Below, in pieces: positions 1 to 37,208 of a stretch of DNA of 64,000 nt (the first letter of the stretch is position 1; each line of letters opens with the position of its first letter). The stretch lies in NCBI GenBank assembly GCA_964612995.1, contig CAZTGE010000001.1:15985-79984 (forward strand), read 5' to 3'. Position numbers and translations under genes: made by a program. The notes below the pieces were generated by a model, which did no database searches, was not told where the DNA came from, and saw only the letters and a list, made by a program, of their open reading frames with translations. The DNA is from an uncultured candidatus Brocadiaceae bacterium. GTDB taxonomy: Bacteria; Planctomycetota; UBA11346.

Positions 1-1221
1 GTCGCCCTGTGCGACAGCAACCCTCTGCGCATGGAGGCGCGCAACCGGCTCTACGCCGAGGAACATGGCGCCGACCCCATCCAGACCTACACCCCCGATC
101 GCTTCGACGCGATGATCGCCGAACAGCGGGTCGACTGCGTCATCGTCACCTCAATCGATCGCACCCATCACCGTTATATCATCCGCGCGATGGAGCTCGG
201 CTGCGACGCGATCACCGAGAAACCGATGACCGTCGACGCCGAGAAATGCCAGGCCATCCTCGACTGCCAACGCCGTACCGGCCGTCGGCTCACCGTCACC
301 TTCAATTACCGCTATTCGCCGCGCAACAGCAAGGTCAAGCAGCTGCTGATGGACGGGGCCATCGGCACAGTCAACTCGGTCCACTTCGAATGGCTGCTCG
401 ACACCCGCCACGGCGCCGACTACTTCCGGCGCTGGCACCGCGACAAGCGCAATTCCGGCGGGCTGATGGTCCACAAATCCACCCATCACTTCGATCTGGT
501 CAACTGGTGGCTGGACTCGACGCCGCGTACCGTGTTCGGTATGGGCGACCTGATGTTCTACGGCCGCGAGAACGCCGAGGCGCGCGGCGTGACCACATTC
601 TACGATCGCGGCACCGACAACCCCAACGCTGCCGGGGATCCCTTCGCCCTCGACCTCCGCTCGGCAGAGAAGCTCGAGCAGCTCTATCTCGACTGCGAAT
701 CGGCCGACGGCTATCGCCGCGACATGTCGGTGTTCGGCGACTGCATCTCGATCGAAGACGACATGGCTGTACTGGTCCGCTACGCCACCGGCGCGACCAT
801 GAGCTACCACCTCACCGCCTACTCGCCGTGGGAGGGCTACCGCGTGGCCTTCAACGGCACGGCCGGCCGACTCGAGTACGAGGTCCACGAGAAGAGTTAC
901 GTCTCCGGCGACGATCAGGACGCCAACCGACCGGACATCCGCGACAGCCGCGAAATCGACATTGAGGAACCCGCCCGGATCCTGGTGCGCCCGCACTGGG
1001 CCAAGCCGATGGAGATCGATGTCGAGATCGCCAAGGGCGGTCACGGCGGCGGCGACGTGCGCCTGCTCGAAGATGTCTTCGGCAAGCGCAAGCCCGATCC
1101 GCTCGGCCGCGCTGCCGACCACATCGATGGCGCGCGTTCGATCCTCACCGGCATCGCGGCCAACCGCAGCTTCGCCACCGGCCTGCCGGTCGAGGTCGAC
1201 AGCCTGGTCCGGCTCGACTGA
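1..1221 (+). CDS. Gfo/Idh/MocA-family NAD(P)-dependent oxidoreductase, 5' end outside window (partial)
   Basis: Reading frame is open from base 1 and stops at 1221. Translation shows the pattern typical of the Gfo/Idh/MocA dehydrogenase C-terminal domain (EKPM, NYRYSP, conserved HF and WL). The first M in the track (31) is internal. Confidence 0.8.
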   Translation, partial: VALCDSNPLRMEARNRLYAEEHGADPIQTYTPDRFDAMIAEQRVDCVIVTSIDRTHHRYIIRAMELGCDAITEKPMTVDAEKCQAILDCQRRTGRRLTVTFNYRYSPRNSKVKQLLMDGAIGTVNSVHFEWLLDTRHGADYFRRWHRDKRNSGGLMVHKSTHHFDLVNWWLDSTPRTVFGMGDLMFYGRENAEARGVTTFYDRGTDNPNAAGDPFALDLRSAEKLEQLYLDCESADGYRRDMSVFGDCISIEDDMAVLVRYATGATMSYHLTAYSPWEGYRVAFNGTAGRLEYEVHEKSYVSGDDQDANRPDIRDSREIDIEEPARILVRPHWAKPMEIDVEIAKGGHGGGDVRLLEDVFGKRKPDPLGRAADHIDGARSILTGIAANRSFATGLPVEVDSLVRLD

Positions 1222-3322: not shown

Positions 3323-5559
<2,237 letters not shown>

Positions 5560-31353: not shown

Positions 31354-31743
31354 CTACAGCGGTTCGTCCTGATCGAGCTCGCAGAGCTCGCAGCACGGCG
31401 GGCGCCGGTCCGGGCGCACGATCGCCAACCACCAGATCAGGCCGGCCGCCGGCAACCCCGCAACCAGGGCCCAGGGAGTGATCACCAGCACCGCGGCCGC
31501 GTTGCCGGCGAGCAGCACCAGCGCCAGCGTGAGGCGCAGGAACTGGCGCCGCAGGCGATGCCGGCGGAGATCCTGCTCGAGTACCGGCCACAGGATGCGG
31601 AACAGGGTGCCGGTTCCCGGGGTGGTGTCGGATTCGCTGCAGCGGTCCGACTCGCTCTCGCCGAACAGGTTGTCCCACTGCCGCTCGCGTTCATAGCGGC
31701 GTGGGCGCCCGGAGAAATACATGCGATCGGATGCCGAACTCAT
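31354..31743 (-). CDS. small hypothetical membrane protein
   Basis: ATG 31743 overlaps the ugpC stop (ATGA). One or two TM helices (LTLALVLLAGNAAAVLVITPWALVAGLPAAGLIWWLAIV). Confidence 0.4.
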   Translation of the reverse strand: MSSASDRMYFSGRPRRYERERQWDNLFGESESDRCSESDTTPGTGTLFRILWPVLEQDLRRHRLRRQFLRLTLALVLLAGNAAAVLVITPWALVAGLPAAGLIWWLAIVRPDRRPPCCELCELDQDEPL

Positions 31744-32921
31744 GACACCTCCGCCGGAACCGGAGCCGTGGCCAGCGAGCACCCGCTGTCATCGAACAGG
31801 TGCAGTTGGGCGGTGTCCACGCCGAGCTCGACCGGCTCGTCGCGGCTGACGCCGAAACGTCCGGGCAGCCGGGTCACCAAGCGCAGATCCTCGCCGGTGT
31901 GCGTATCCTCGCCCTCGAGGTCGGCGACGTGGATCCGCTGCACCGGCACGGGGGCGTAGACCATCTGCTCGTGCCCCAGCGGCTCGACGCCATCTGGAAC
32001 GATACGCAGACGTTGCTCAGCGGGCACCTGATCCGGCGGCACGAAGGCCTCCGGGCGCAGACCGCAGGATACGGTGCCGTCGCAGCGCTGGTCGAGGTCG
32101 GGGAAACGCGCGCGTGCCGATGCGGCGATGGCCACCCGCTGATCGCCGATGATCACGGCGGGGCCCCCGGCGTCGGCGACCAGCCTGGTGCGGAACAGGT
32201 TCATGCTCGGAGAGCCGATGAACGAGGCGACGAAGGTGTTCACCGGCGCGTCGTAGAGCTCCTGCGGCGGAGCCACCTGTTGCAGCAGGCCCTGGCGCAT
32301 CACCGCGACCCGGTCGCCCATGGTCATCGCCTCGATCTGGTCGTGGGTGACGTAGATGGTGGTGGTGTGCGTACGGCGCTGGAGCTGACTGATCTCAGCG
32401 CGCATGCTCACTCGCAGCTTGGCATCGAGATTGGACAGCGGCTCATCCATCAGAAAGGCGACGGGATCGCGGACCAGGGCCCGGCCCATGGCCACGCGTT
32501 GGCGCTGGCCGCCGGAAAGGGCCTTGGGCTTGCGTTCGAGCAGATCGCCGAGCTCGAGCATCTGCGCGACCTTCTCGACCTGCGCCGCGATCGCGGGCCG
32601 CTTCAGCTTGCGCATCTGCAGCGGGAAGGCGAGGTTCTTGCGCACGCTCATGTGGGGATAGAGCGCGTAGTTCTGGAACACCATCGAGACGTTGCGCTGC
32701 TGCGGCTGCAGATCGTTGACCAGCACATCGTCGATGAACAGCTCGCCGCGGGTGATCTCCTCGAGCCCGGCACACATCCGCATCGCCGTGGTCTTGCCAC
32801 AGCCGGATGGGCCGACGATGACCATGAACTCGCCGTCGGCGATCTGCAGGTCGAGATCGCGGACGGCGTGGACCCCGCCGGGATAGACCTTGTTCACGTT
32901 CCTGTATTCTATTGTCGCCAT
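31740..32921 (-). CDS. ugpC: sugar / sn-glycerol-3-phosphate ABC transporter ATP-binding protein (MalK/UgpC family)
   Basis: Walker A GPSGCGKTT, signature LSGGQRQRVAMGRAL, Walker B FLMDEPLSNLD, and the C-terminal regulatory (TOBE-like) domain. Confidence 0.9.
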   Translation of the reverse strand: MATIEYRNVNKVYPGGVHAVRDLDLQIADGEFMVIVGPSGCGKTTAMRMCAGLEEITRGELFIDDVLVNDLQPQQRNVSMVFQNYALYPHMSVRKNLAFPLQMRKLKRPAIAAQVEKVAQMLELGDLLERKPKALSGGQRQRVAMGRALVRDPVAFLMDEPLSNLDAKLRVSMRAEISQLQRRTHTTTIYVTHDQIEAMTMGDRVAVMRQGLLQQVAPPQELYDAPVNTFVASFIGSPSMNLFRTRLVADAGGPAVIIGDQRVAIAASARARFPDLDQRCDGTVSCGLRPEAFVPPDQVPAEQRLRIVPDGVEPLGHEQMVYAPVPVQRIHVADLEGEDTHTGEDLRLVTRLPGRFGVSRDEPVELGVDTAQLHLFDDSGCSLATAPVPAEVS

Positions 32922-32928
32922 CGTCGAT

Positions 32929-34191
32929 TCACCCCTTCACCGCCCCTACGGCGATAGCATTGACGATATAGCGCTGGAGCATGATGAACAGGACCACCAC
33001 AGGGATTACCATCAGCGTGGCCGCGGCGTTGATCCAGTGCCAGAACGATTCGTAGCCCGATTTGAACATGAATACCGCCAACGCCAGCGGCTGGAAGGCG
33101 GGGCGCGACTGCGCGGTGAGCAGCGGGACGAGGAAGTTGTTCCACGCCCCGAGAAAGGCCAGCAAGCCGACGGTCATCACGATCGGCCGGGCCATGGGCA
33201 GAGCGATGGCGAAGAAGGTACGGAAGGGCCCGGCGCCGTCGACAAAAGCCGCCTCCTCGACCTCCTTGGGCAGGGTGAGGAAGAAGCCCGCCATCAGGAA
33301 CGCGTTGCCGATCGAGATGCCGGCCATCCACAGCACCATGCCCCACAGGCTCTCCAGCAGGCCCGCGGCCATGATGAAGCGGAACACCGGGATGATCACC
33401 GCTTCGGTCGGTGCGACCGCGCCGAAGAGCAGCAACGAGAGGATGAGCATCTTGCCGGGGAAGCGCATCCGCGCGAGGGCGAAGCCGAGCATCGAGCTCA
33501 TCAACACCACGATGATCACCACCGCCGAGGTCACGAGGAAGCTAGTCGCGGTGTAGAGCCAGAAGCGCATGTCGCGCCAGACCACGGCGTAGTTCTCGAG
33601 CTGGAACCGGGTACCCGCGAGCAGATCGCGCGCCGCGAGGTCCGCGAGCGCGGTCCGCGCCTGCTCGTGTTTCGCTGCCTCGTCGGCACTGTCGGGGAAC
33701 AGGGTCTCGGCTGCGTCGGCGGGGGTGATGCGGTAGGGGACGAAGGTGTTGTAGATGCAACGACGCTTGATGTCGTCCTTGCGCAGCAACTGCAGGATCT
33801 CGCGCTGGACCGGGCTCAGGCTCGGGTCCGCGGCCTCGCGCTGCGAGCGCTCCGCCGCGATGGCCAGGGACGCGGCCTTGGCCCGCTCGGTCTGCTCCAG
33901 GTCGGCGATGTCGATCGGTTTGCCGCCGGGGCGGAAGGGAGCGAACAGGCTCTCGCGCCGCTGCGGGTGCAGGCCGTACTTGACCGTGGGCACCGCGGTG
34001 TGCTTCTGGGCGGTGCTCTCCTGCGCCGTCTTGGTGCTGGTGCCCATCATCCAGATGAAGGGATAGATGTTTAGCAGGGCGAGGCCCAGCAGCAGCACGT
34101 GCACTGGCAGGCTCCAGCCGCGCCGGCGGAACCAGTTGCCGAAGCGGTTGCCGGCTTCAAGACGGTCGGGGCGGCTCTCACTGCTCATCGG
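32929..34191 (-). CDS. carbohydrate ABC transporter permease (MalG/UgpE-like) with a long extracytoplasmic loop after TM1
   Basis: EAA-loop motif EEAAFVDGAGPFRTFFAIALPMARP and six TM segments. Start at MSSESRPDRLEAG (ATG 34191) inside the longer track ORF. Confidence 0.8.
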   Translation of the reverse strand, partial: PMSSESRPDRLEAGNRFGNWFRRRGWSLPVHVLLLGLALLNIYPFIWMMGTSTKTAQESTAQKHTAVPTVKYGLHPQRRESLFAPFRPGGKPIDIADLEQTERAKAASLAIAAERSQREAADPSLSPVQREILQLLRKDDIKRRCIYNTFVPYRITPADAAETLFPDSADEAAKHEQARTALADLAARDLLAGTRFQLENYAVVWRDMRFWLYTATSFLVTSAVVIIVVLMSSMLGFALARMRFPGKMLILSLLLFGAVAPTEAVIIPVFRFIMAAGLLESLWGMVLWMAGISIGNAFLMAGFFLTLPKEVEEAAFVDGAGPFRTFFAIALPMARPIVMTVGLLAFLGAWNNFLVPLLTAQSRPAFQPLALAVFMFKSGYESFWHWINAAATLMVIPVVVLFIMLQRYIVNAIAVGAVKG

Positions 34192-34766
34192 CCAGCTCCT
34201 GCAGCGGCGTAGCGGCCGCGGATCCGGCGGCCGACGTAGACCATGTTGATCACGATGAAGCCGGCGAGCAGCAGCGCGTAGAGCACGCTCAGGGTCGCGG
34301 CATAGCCGACATCCGGCAGCGCGGTCTCGTTCCACTCGAAGCCGTTCTTGAACACGTAGGTCGAGACGATCTCGGTCCCGCTGTCACCCTTGGTCAGGAT
34401 GTAGACGTTGCCGAAGTGGCGCGCCGCGCCGACGAGCGAGTTGAACAGGATGATCAGCAGGATCGGTGCCAGCTGCGGCAGGGTGATGCGGGTGAAGCGC
34501 TGCCAGGACCCGGCGCCGTCGATGCGTGCCGCCTCGTAGAGATCGCGGGGGATCGACTGCAGCCCCGCGAGGCAGAGGATGGTGTTGTAGGGCAGGCCGT
34601 GCCAGACGCCGACCCCCATCAGGGTGTAGAGCGCGACGTCGGGATCGTTGAGCCAGTTGATCGGCGCGGTGGTCTCACGCAGCCCCAGCATCGCGAGCAG
34701 GTCGTAGACGCCGATCCATTCCAATGCCTGGTTGAGCCCGCTGCCCTCGCCGCCGAGATTTTTTTT
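34185..34766 (-). pseudogene. MalF/UgpA-like permease, C-terminal part (TM3-TM6 with EAA loop). It is separated from its N-terminal part by the adapter-derived insert, so the gene as assembled is disrupted.
   Basis: EAA motif YEAARIDGAGSWQRFTRITLPQLAP. Same reading frame as ORF 34791-37169. The first about 10 codons of the track ORF (MVAVSLKKNL) are translated from the T9 and adapter sequence, not native DNA. Confidence 0.7.
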
Positions 34767-34796
34767 TAATGATACGGCGACCACCGAGATCTACAC
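34759..34796. other. non-native insert: T9 followed by the exact 29-nt Illumina P5 adapter AATGATACGGCGACCACCGAGATCTACAC (34768-34796)
   Basis: Exact match to the P5 flow-cell adapter. It introduces an in-frame TAG (from ATCTACAC) that splits the permease gene. Confidence 0.9.
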
Positions 34797-37067
34797 CACC
34801 ATCGGGATGAAGAACAGGGTGCGGTAGAAACCGATGCCGCGCAGGCCGATGTTCAACAGGCAGCCCATCCCCAGACCGACGGCGACCTCGGCTACGGCGA
34901 CGATCGTCATGTACTGCAGGGTGTTGGGCACCACCTCGCCCCAGAAGGTGTCATCGGCGAAGGCGTGCCGGTACTGGTCCAGCCCGACGAACGACAAGGC
35001 GGTCTGCCCGGTACCCGTGTGGAGCGAGAGATAGAGCTGATAGAGCGCCGGATAGAGCACGAACACGAACAGGGCCAGAACCGCGGGCGCGACGAAGACG
35101 TAGGCATGCCAGTTGCGGCGCGCCGCGCCCGCAAGCCCACGCATCCCACCAGGGGAGCGGCCGACGAAGCGGCGCCAGAGCAGGTAGATCGCGACGGTGG
35201 CCAGGATCAGGCCCGTGAGCGAGAGCAGCAACGGCCAGGCGGGGGGGCGGCTCATGCCCTGGGCCCCACGCAGTTCACCCGGCAAAGCCGCGCGCAAGCT
35301 GGTGATGCGTTCTTCGCCGGCCGGATCACCGGCGTTGATTTGACGGATGTAGAACGACCCAGCGCGCATCGGATCCCAGTCGGGGAACACGAAGCGCTGT
35401 GGATCGCGCGCACCTTGTTCCACCAGCTCGGCCAGATCGGCATTGACCGCCGCCGTGTATTCTTCCAGGCCCTGCGCGAGCCGGCGCAGCAGCCGGTCGA
35501 AGGTCGCCACGTCCTCGCGGGCAGCGGCGTCCTCACTGAAGGTGAGGAACACCTCGCGCATCTGGGTGCGGTGATCCGCGAGATCGCGGATCCGCCGGTG
35601 CGATGGCGGCGCGGGCCAGACCTGGGTCGTCTCGACGTAGTTCCAGGCCTGGATCTGGAAGGGCAGCAGCTGCTCGCGGACCGCCACCCACTGCGGGTCG
35701 TCGCTCTCGAACACCAGATAACCCAGGGTGCGGTTGTCCGGTAGATTGTAGTGCTCGAGCAGCATGGGGATCTGCTTCTGGGGGAAGCGCCAGTGGCTGT
35801 AGAGCCAGTCCCAGGCCGAATCGGGGTACTCGCTGCCGGTGGTGATGCAGGTGATCCGGCTGTTGCCGCCGCCATCGCGGATGTGAGCGCCGCGGTCGAC
35901 CGTGAAACCGAGCATCTGCTCGAGTTCCGCCGCTTCGCCCGCATCGGTGTAGGGCACGGGGATCGCGGCCGAGCCGATCTGCTCCTTGGCCGCCGGGTTC
36001 TTCTGCGCCGCGATCATCGCCGCGTGCCAGCCGTCGATCAACATCGCGGCACGGCCCTGTGACAACAAGGCCCGGCTCTCCTCGTAGTGGCGCTGGGCGG
36101 TCCCCGGGCACAGGCTGCCATCCTGGGCGATGAGCATCAGCAGCTTGAAGGCGCCGCGCATCGCCGCGCCGTGATAGTCGTACGCGCCACGGGCGAAATC
36201 GAAGCCGGTGCTCCCGGCAGTGGCGGCGAGCGGATCGACCGCCCGGGCGAAGAGGTTGGGGTCCTGCCCCTGCATGATCAGGCCGTAGGGCCGGTCCTGG
36301 CTGTCGGCGCCATAGGTCTCGATACCCCAGCGGGTGATCAGCGCGGCGAAACGGCGCATCTCGGCCCAGGTCCGCGGCGGCCGGGCGCGACCCTGGGCGT
36401 CGACCAGCTCGGCGTAGGCGCCGCCGGCGGCTGCCGCCTGCTCGAACAACCGGGCGTTGTAGGTCAGCGCCTTCGCCTTGCCGGGCGGATTGAAGCCGAT
36501 GATCTTGCCGTGCATCGCCAGCAGCCGCACCGCCTCCTCGGCGTGCTCGCCGCGCTCGACCCAGGCGCGGATGCGCGGGTCGTCGGGGTTGGCCTGGAAT
36601 CGGACGATGGCCTGTTCACCGCCATTGAGCCCGAGGATGAAGTCGGGCAGGCCGAGACGCTCGCGGATGCGGTTCTCGCGCGCAACCAGGTCGTCGAGCG
36701 GCCGGATCTGCCCCGCCGCGACCGCATCGGCCAGCTGACTCGGCCAGTAGTCGACGATGTCGGGCGGATCCCCGGCGAGGAAGGAGACGAAGATCACGTC
36801 ATCGCGCGAGGCCGACGAGGCGAAATGGAGGTTGGTCTGCACCGGCTCGATGTCCGGATCGCGCGCGGCCTCGGCGGCGAGGTCGTGGGTGAACCGCCGC
36901 GCGTGCATCAGGTCTTCCTGCGGCGAGCCGCTACTCGACCATTGCGTGACCACGCGCCCGCGAGCTTTGTCCGCGGTGGTCAGCACGCGGGTGATCCCAC
37001 CCCAGAAACTGATCATGGTCGCGATGCCGAGGCCGATGCACAGGAAGGCCCAGGCGCGAGTGGACAT
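34794..37067 (-). CDS. extracellular solute-binding protein (about 600 aa) continuing in frame, with no stop, into the N-terminal part of a MalF-like permease (TM1-TM2, RRNWHAYVFVAPAVLALFVFVLYP)
   Basis: ATG 37067 with GGAG 7 nt upstream. N-terminal anchor MSTRAWAFLCIGLGIATMISFW. Large soluble domain. Then a TM and the typical MalF N-terminus. The reading frame runs uninterrupted until the TAG contributed by the adapter. Confidence 0.55.
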
Positions 37068-37208
37068 ATTGGAGGGCTCCGTGCTGCGGGGAAACGTGCG
37101 GGGAAACGGGGACGCCAGCTTGGTACGCCCAGCGGCGGCCTTCGCTGAGGACAAAGACCGCGTGCGCACGCCAGTGGATCAGCCAGCGCGGCCGTTCGGG
37201 CGACGGCC

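Follow-up and report, generated by a model that had tools for sequence, protein, structure and literature searches.

The window, by which we mean the whole 64-kb stretch of DNA analysed here (G+C content 69.3%), carries on its minus strand a transporter operon in which one sugar-transporter gene is interrupted by a stop codon (Table 1). The interrupted gene combines a periplasmic solute-binding domain (PF01547, in the N-terminal part) and a MalF-type permease domain (PF00528, 67.4 bits for a cut-off of 26.4) in a single polypeptide. Its permease part is assigned to the MalF/UgpA type on the basis of this above-threshold match and of the operon context, located downstream of the damaged gene at positions 31740..34335 on the minus strand, where a second permease and a MalK-like ATPase are encoded. 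Binding-protein/permease fusions are uncommon among importers. The best database homologue of the fusion (P0001, 44% identity) likewise exceeds the length of an ordinary permease. In the second permease, the BPD_transp_1 match covers only residues 281–461, and about 280 N-terminal residues have no Pfam match.

The interruption coincides with an exact copy of the 29-nt Illumina P5 sequence, AATGATACGGCGACCACCGAGATCTACAC, preceded directly on its 5′ side by nine Ts. P5 occurs once in the window, 34.8 kb from its start, at an internal site and not at one of the contig-end type. No match was obtained in 100 dinucleotide-preserving shuffles of the window, even with up to three mismatches tolerated, and the chance expectation is 0. 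No TruSeq, Nextera or index sequence was found 3′ of P5, where native sequence abuts the adapter directly, and no TruSeq or Nextera 12-mer was found near the site. Searches for other adapter pieces of at least 13 nt (P7, Nextera, TruSeq, 454, Ion, PacBio and ONT) detected none elsewhere in the 64-kb window. A handful of isolated 12-mer adapter matches were rejected as adapter remnants; none of them adjoins a T-run. The original prediction, which had reported an exact P5 sequence preceded by nine Ts, not followed by index or TruSeq sequence and contributing an in-frame TAG to a permease gene, is thus confirmed on all of these points.

Table 1. Coordinates of the transporter genes and of the P5 block in the window.
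Feature	Position	Strand	Remarks
Damaged gene, 960-codon SBP_bac_1 + MalF/UgpA-type BPD_transp_1 fusion	34185..37067	-	Pfam; intact 960-aa ORF in L001 (175-3057)
ORF of damaged gene matching SBP_bac_1	37169..34791	-	792 aa
ORF of damaged gene matching BPD_transp_1	34784..34185	-	199 aa
Second permease, 468 aa, undamaged	32929-34335	-	PF00528
MalK-like ATPase, 393 aa, undamaged	31740-32921	-	PF00005+PF17912
P5 grafting sequence	34768..34796	+	29/29 exact; coding (minus) strand reads GTGTAGATCTCGGTGGTCGCCGTATCATT
T9 run, apparent copy of the poly-T spacer tethering P5 to the flow-cell surface	34759..34767	+	only A/T homopolymer of at least 7 nt in the window
Base of uncertain origin, in the slot of a tenth linker T	34758	+	A here, C in L001
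In-frame TAG from the reverse complement of P5	34791..34793	-	L001 codon there is TCG (Ser)

The TAG cuts the gene into two ORFs, each retaining one of the two domain matches. The affected codons (34758-34793) are translated as VV*ISVVAVSLKKNLGGE, the asterisk denoting the stop. When aligned with 18 homologues of its family, the protein of the window shows no indel through the corrupted stretch; for example, FFIPMVV*ISVVAVSLKKNLGGE-GSGLN matches FFIPLVTSLAIVSVIFIGLLAGP-ESGLN column by column.

A scan of genome collections provided a single close relative, L001, a contig of a Planctomycetota MAG (JBEPXK010000238.1). Its operon contains the same three genes in the same order, with ORFs of 960, 468 and 393 aa, all of the lengths found in the window operon, and its counterpart of the damaged gene is 90% identical to the window gene in amino acids and 88% in nucleotides. 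Looking for closer relatives, we obtained a best identity of 44% in the protein search and nothing close in the metagenome scan. The window from 34200 to 37000 aligns with L001 at 87.5% identity and with no gap column over 2,801 nt, P5 site included, so that the 38 foreign bases replace exactly 38 native bases. The original prediction had proposed a replacement of about 20–30 nt that keeps the downstream frame. Preservation of the frame stands, with no indel relative to the 18 homologues; the size has to be corrected to 38 for 38 nt. Neither extra length nor duplication in the flanks, as might betray a mobile element or an insertion, is visible at the site. The warning that neighbouring base calls should not be trusted does not hold either, since the 30 nt on each side are 93% and 83% identical to L001, as compared to 87.5% gene-wide, and look normal. 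The false bases appear to number about 38 (34759-34796, perhaps also 34758), making the stop and about 13 codons false and leaving the flanks sound. A conserved transmembrane helix is hit by the stop, and in the closest relative the gene is intact. The permease gene should therefore be regarded as intact and not as a pseudogene, and the native residues of the affected stretch are probably near those of L001, VVSMSVVAVIFFGLLGGE.

The native sequence that the adapter covers was judged by proxy in L001. On the coding strand, L001 reads GTGTCGATGTCGGTGGTCGCGGTGATCTT (translated FFIPMVVSMSVVAVIFFGLLGGEDSG) where the reverse complement of P5 reads GTGTAGATCTCGGTGGTCGCCGTATCATT. The native 29-mer is identical to P5 at 22 of 29 positions, in the same register and orientation, with 20 of 23 matches in the 3′ (priming) part and 10 of 12 over the last 12 nt. 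This register is the best P5-like site in L001 (the runner-up reaches 17/29), and at this base composition 14 million positions would be expected to contain only about 0.08 sites of 22/29 quality. A natural P5 look-alike lies under the adapter, and the placement of the adapter is therefore not random; most likely, the overwriting stems from a chance resemblance of the native gene to P5. In L001, counting from the 3′ end of P5, only 4 nt match perfectly until a mismatch is reached, a poorer basis for priming than the phage cases described below offer. By analogy with L001, the native coding-strand sequence of the window genome would be roughly GTGTCGAT(C/G)TCGGTGGTCGC(C/G)GTGATCTTCTTCGGCCTNCTC.

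The original prediction had looked for homology on the other side of the junction, in a native CCGAGAT upstream of the T-run that resembles the adapter's own CCGAGAT. Only CCGAG is common to L001, and the homology sits beneath the adapter. We rejected the upstream motif as the cause; under the mechanism proposed below, homology is not required there. Eight further sites of the window match the 3′ end of P5 at 10 of 12 positions and none of them is overwritten, indicating that homology is permissive, not sufficient. Two of these, at 64-92 (+) and 34624-34652 (-), match the last 6–7 nt of P5 exactly and are intact nonetheless; the latter is on the opposite strand, a mere 120 nt or so from the artefact.

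The T-run provides information on the origin of the block. Published surface oligonucleotides have the sequences 5′-T10-AATGATACGGCGACCACCGAGA(U)CTACAC and 5′-T10-CAA(8-oxoG)CAGAAGACGGCATACGAGAT, and the P5 of the window is the same as the P5 of that list (PMC13584795, Table 1). The 10-T spacer is placed at the 5′ end of surface primers against steric hindrance (PMC11123353). When T-runs preceding adapters were measured in IMG/VR contigs, a sharp mode at 10 was obtained both for P5 (27 of 97 among the matches listed, range 6–28) and for P7 (46 of 122 among the matches listed), which is consistent with a linker of fixed length. Judged by its sequence, the 38-nt block corresponds to the flow-cell-grafted oligonucleotide (about ten Ts followed by P5), and the coding strand of the window reads as would a read directed towards the surface, P5 complement first and As next. 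The P5 block carries the T-run of the surface oligonucleotide, which points to clustering and sequencing as its source, more than to the preparation of the library or to a pure assembly error. The claim that the block is an artefact and not biology is thus strongly supported, by the intact 960-aa ORF of L001, by the gapless alignment and by the correspondence with the surface-grafted oligonucleotide, whereas its attribution to assembly or library preparation is not supported. The spacer of the window, T9, is one nucleotide shorter than T10, and the A at 34758 is accounted for neither by the linker nor by L001; it could be native to the window genome, or have been miscalled where one template takes over from the other. 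Elsewhere, too, the end of the linker shifts by 1–2 nt, with T11 in Klebsiella phage Marfa and T12 in contig L094 (see below).

We then classified the sites at which a T-run precedes P5 or P7 in public sequences. Most are read-through tips, located at contig ends and continuing into TruSeq or into index plus Nextera sequence; they represent at least 76 of the 97 P5 sites among the matches listed. A second group, class A, consists of whole read-through reads inserted internally, with a duplicated flank and a net gain of 177–313 nt, as seen in the E. coli phages WFK (MK373775), G4500 (MK327945) and KAW1E185 (NC_054922). We had considered these three as further equivalents of the window site and rejected them as belonging to the insertion type. 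They (L340, L341 and L343) contain a long T-run, P5/P7, an index, the Nextera adapter with its mosaic end and a duplicated flank, and in WFK the insertion splits the gene for the long-tail-fibre proximal subunit into three CDSs. Class B corresponds to the situation of the window: a bare T~10+P5 or T~10+P7 block, internal, with non-adapter sequence on both sides. Among the matches listed in viral contigs, 10 of 97 P5 sites (about 10%) and 6 of 122 P7 sites (about 5%) are of this type. In the phage GenBank collection, approximately 27–44 records of any class match the T-run+P5/P7 string of about 40 nt at 95% identity or more, and class B was seen in three of them, Marfa, EI and Saba. Other matches in this collection include Vibrio phage JSF5, Acinetobacter phage TAC1 (internal, at about 22,630) and Roseobacter phage RD-1410W1-01, as well as Bacillus phage Tomato, where the match lies inside a gene annotated 'DNA polymerase', and phage G4507, where it lies inside 'baseplate hub subunit and tail lysozyme'.

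In a further set of sites (L055 at 4466-4505, L092, L027, L240, L261, L287 and L313; L027 is Aeribacillus phage AP45, NC_048651.1, at 113-153), the block runs on through the index and ends inside the Nextera or TruSeq part. An example of end point is TCGTCGGCA(G/C)CGTC, the 3′-terminal bases of the Nextera index primer, with native-looking sequence next. These index-bearing blocks may represent the same phenomenon, primed by a PCR primer or by a partly extended strand.

Four further class B sites, in five phage genomes or contigs, could be compared with uncorrupted relatives. All are overlays of equal length, and in all of them the native sequence agrees with the 3′-terminal bases of either P5 or P7, with 5–13 nt exact. 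In the case of L039, compared with 12 relatives, T10+P5 replaces exactly 39 nt between identical flanks, and the native sequence contains GATCTACAC, the last 9 nt of P5, for an overall match of 10–14/29. In L094, P5 is overlaid with 0 gaps relative to MT839416 (94% identity), and the native sequence reads CCAGATATACAC where the oligonucleotide reads CGAGATCTACAC (10/12 at the 3′ end). In L225, compared with L350, T10+P7 replaces 34 nt, the native AAACGAGAT standing against ATACGAGAT with 7 nt exact. Lastly, the Klebsiella phages Marfa (MN044033 / NC_048798) and EI (MN106245) carry T11 or T10 plus P7 in the portal gene, with the same 34 nt covered in both; HMGUkp2 and AmPh_EK29 have there natively CGGCATACGAGAT, the last 13 nt of P7. 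The two affected phages were isolated independently, as SNPs in their flanks show. The Marfa block (L264 / L348, NC_048798.1, about 99,165-99,199) lies where no CDS is annotated, and in EI (L346, MN106245.1) two CDSs stand in place of one portal gene. A match of at least 10/12 at a given position has a chance of about 2e-5, which makes every one of these cases significant by itself.

Two more sites illustrate the effect on coding sequences. In Proteus phage Saba (L342, MN062188.1 / NC_052978.1, 33091-33125), a bare T10+P7 block lies in frame within a CDS annotated 'distal tail protein' / 'tail assembly protein' and is translated in the deposited protein (YFFFQAEDGIRD); no close relative of Saba was found from which the native sequence could be recovered. 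In L032, 14 residues of an RmlA-like gene are replaced, a stretch for which E. coli RmlA presumably also has 14 residues. Close uncorrupted relatives of L032, L233, L244, L037 and L096 were absent from the collections searched, and those of L025 (65% and 53% amino acid identity) are too distant to show the native site.

Taken together, the sequences argue that the block is a sequencing artefact made on the flow cell by mispriming of a grafted oligonucleotide and not DNA of the organism, a reading to which we give a probability of about 0.72. It starts from four observations: the correspondence of the 38 nt with the grafted oligonucleotide, the swap of equal length, the look-alike at the same register in the orthologue and the recurrence of such sites, P7 included. 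From these sequence patterns we infer the mispriming step, base calling in a mixed cluster and the reason why the assembler chose the artefact path. The coding strand of the native gene would hold a chance near-copy of the P5 complement. During bridge amplification, the grafted 5′-T10-P5-3′ oligonucleotide would anneal to this internal site instead of the P5 complement at the strand end, and would be extended. Truncated strands would thus arise in the same cluster, with the structure T10-P5-native sequence right of the site-read-2 adapter-P7′, and, having perfect ends, would amplify well. Truncated and full-length strands keep a common sequencing-primer site, and their signals would therefore be superimposed in register. 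In read 2, which proceeds towards the surface, both templates would be called identically until the site; beyond it, the truncated templates would emit the P5 complement and then about ten As from the linker, outweighing the native signal. Once the truncated templates are exhausted at the surface, full-length templates alone would be read and native calls would resume in perfect register. In the P7 counterpart, the truncated strands would be read in read 1, those of P5 being read in read 2. Finally, the assembler would have taken the variant of the composite reads into the consensus.

Internal priming of this kind would explain the linker, the missing library adapter, the homology to the 3′ end, the recurrence in independent genomes and the symmetry between P5 and P7; the end of the truncated templates would explain the equal length and the return of native sequence in register. 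In the L094 overlay, the position 3′ of the cleavable U carries the base of P5 and not the differing native one, which suggests that the primer was the full-length grafted oligonucleotide and hence that priming occurred at the amplification stage, not at the paired-end turnaround, where the oligonucleotide is already cut. Against the mechanism, only one of four read/orientation classes would carry the artefact, and its choice by the assembler needs extra assumptions. Candidate reasons for this choice are low coverage, extra k-mers from read-through, and opposing reads that are weak or of poor quality because truncated strands prevail in their clusters.

The main alternative is a computational chimera, in which read-through reads (insert-TruSeq-P5′-polyA) were drawn in by an assembler, gap-closer or polisher and the consensus was overwritten. 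The L001 site resembles P5 at 20 of 23 positions, and the true genome may share a long exact stretch with it; read-through tips ending in P5′+A10 are very common in public assemblies, and assembler-made internal insertions do exist, as in WFK, G4500 and KAW1E185. However, this assembler-made class has a different appearance, with a full adapter, an index, a duplicated flank and 177–313 additional nt, whereas in the window the replacement is of exactly equal length and TruSeq, Nextera and index parts are absent. Furthermore, the left junction, from A9 to native sequence, has no k-mer in common with ordinary adapter reads, so that reads spanning this junction must exist. Overlays also occur at sites that share only 7–13 nt with the 3′ end of the oligonucleotide, below assembler k or mapper seed; such homologies are too short for an assembler or mapper and of the size that a primer needs. 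Recurrence in two independently assembled phages argues in the same direction, and we consider a computational origin unlikely. A variant, k-mer error correction from native to adapter sequence, was rejected: it could yield the first ~23 nt and would leave unexplained ATCATT+A9, a string that bears no relation to the native bases.

A true chimeric molecule made at the library stage, when genomic DNA in solution was misprimed by, or ligated to, a P5-bearing PCR primer or adapter, appears still less probable. The 3′-end homology rule would suit any P5-bearing primer, and the blocks of L055, L092 and L027, which stop precisely where the Nextera index primer does, suggest that primers in solution, or partly extended strands, do indeed misprime. 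However, a poly-T spacer is absent from the primers and adapters used in solution; the T-run, with 10 as its most frequent length, is that of the surface oligonucleotide (PMC13584795). A P5-native molecule would in addition lack the read-1 primer site, and its read 2 would end at the surface, with no return to native sequence in register past the T-run. The last possibility, that the organism truly carries the 38-nt stretch, as acquired synthetic DNA or by chance, has nothing further in its favour than presence in the assembly and can be practically dismissed, given that an exact 29-mer is expected 0 times, that it adjoins the only long T-run of a 69% GC window, that the stop codon which it creates disrupts a conserved transmembrane helix, the gene being intact in the closest relative, and that the very same string covers genes with no relation to this one in phages that are themselves unrelated (L039, L094).

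Mispriming by the grafted oligonucleotide, if correct, would have consequences beyond this locus. We see about an even chance that the sites described here represent a general and apparently undescribed class of Illumina error, in which at least about 7 bases that match either P5 or P7 at its 3′ end can lead to internal priming and to an in-register overwrite of 34–39 nt, reproducible, resistant to trimming and already present in reference genomes. An artefact of this kind breaks genes or changes them silently with the reading frame kept, and in Saba it reaches an annotated protein. The composite reads would contain neither AGATCGGAAGAGC nor the Nextera motif, and ordinary trimming, aimed at library adapters, therefore does not catch them. 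Since the same site was affected in independent projects, agreement between two genomes does not validate a sequence. A screen for T(≥6)+P5 or T(≥6)+P7 not followed by a library adapter would reveal such sites. In the window, the stop and about 13 codons of the permease need correction or masking. The biological interest of the site is low, and its methodological interest is modest, residing in a frame-preserving, reproducible artefact that is already in the reference genomes of phages Marfa, EI and Saba.

Contamination of microbial genome databases by adapters is documented (PMC11536531), in an account that makes no mention of flow-cell oligonucleotides, internal sites or poly-T. Our full-text literature searches found no published account of an in-register overlay produced by internal priming from a surface oligonucleotide, although one may lie beyond their reach. 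The window block shares with ordinary read-through contamination, the target of UniVec / FCS-adaptor, an exact, untrimmed, non-biological adapter string, and a screen that includes P5 would flag it. As opposed to read-through, which is found at contig ends with a library adapter between insert and P5, it is internal, has no library adapter, replaces sequence rather than adding to it, and is placed by native homology to the 3′ end of the oligonucleotide. Mixed clusters and 'grafting sequences' have also been documented (Kircher, Heyn & Kelso 2011, PMC3163567), again with no description of such an overlay. The read proposed here would likewise be a composite of two templates in one cluster, the stronger one deciding the call; the difference is that the second population would be derived from the first, in register with it until the site, and that native sequence returns afterwards. 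The whole-read insertions of WFK, G4500 and KAW1E185 resemble the window site in being internal, in containing a T-run with P5/P7 and in breaking genes. They differ from it by their full adapter (index, Nextera, mosaic end), their duplicated flank and their gain of 177–313 nt, whereas the window block adds nothing. Finally, Illumina sequencing is subject to sequence-specific systematic errors, for instance at GGC motifs or inverted repeats, which are site-, strand- and read-specific and reproducible. The overlays are similarly site-specific and reproducible between independent runs, as in Marfa and EI, but they consist of a 34–39-nt block of fixed sequence instead of a single base, and their cause would be homology to the surface primers.
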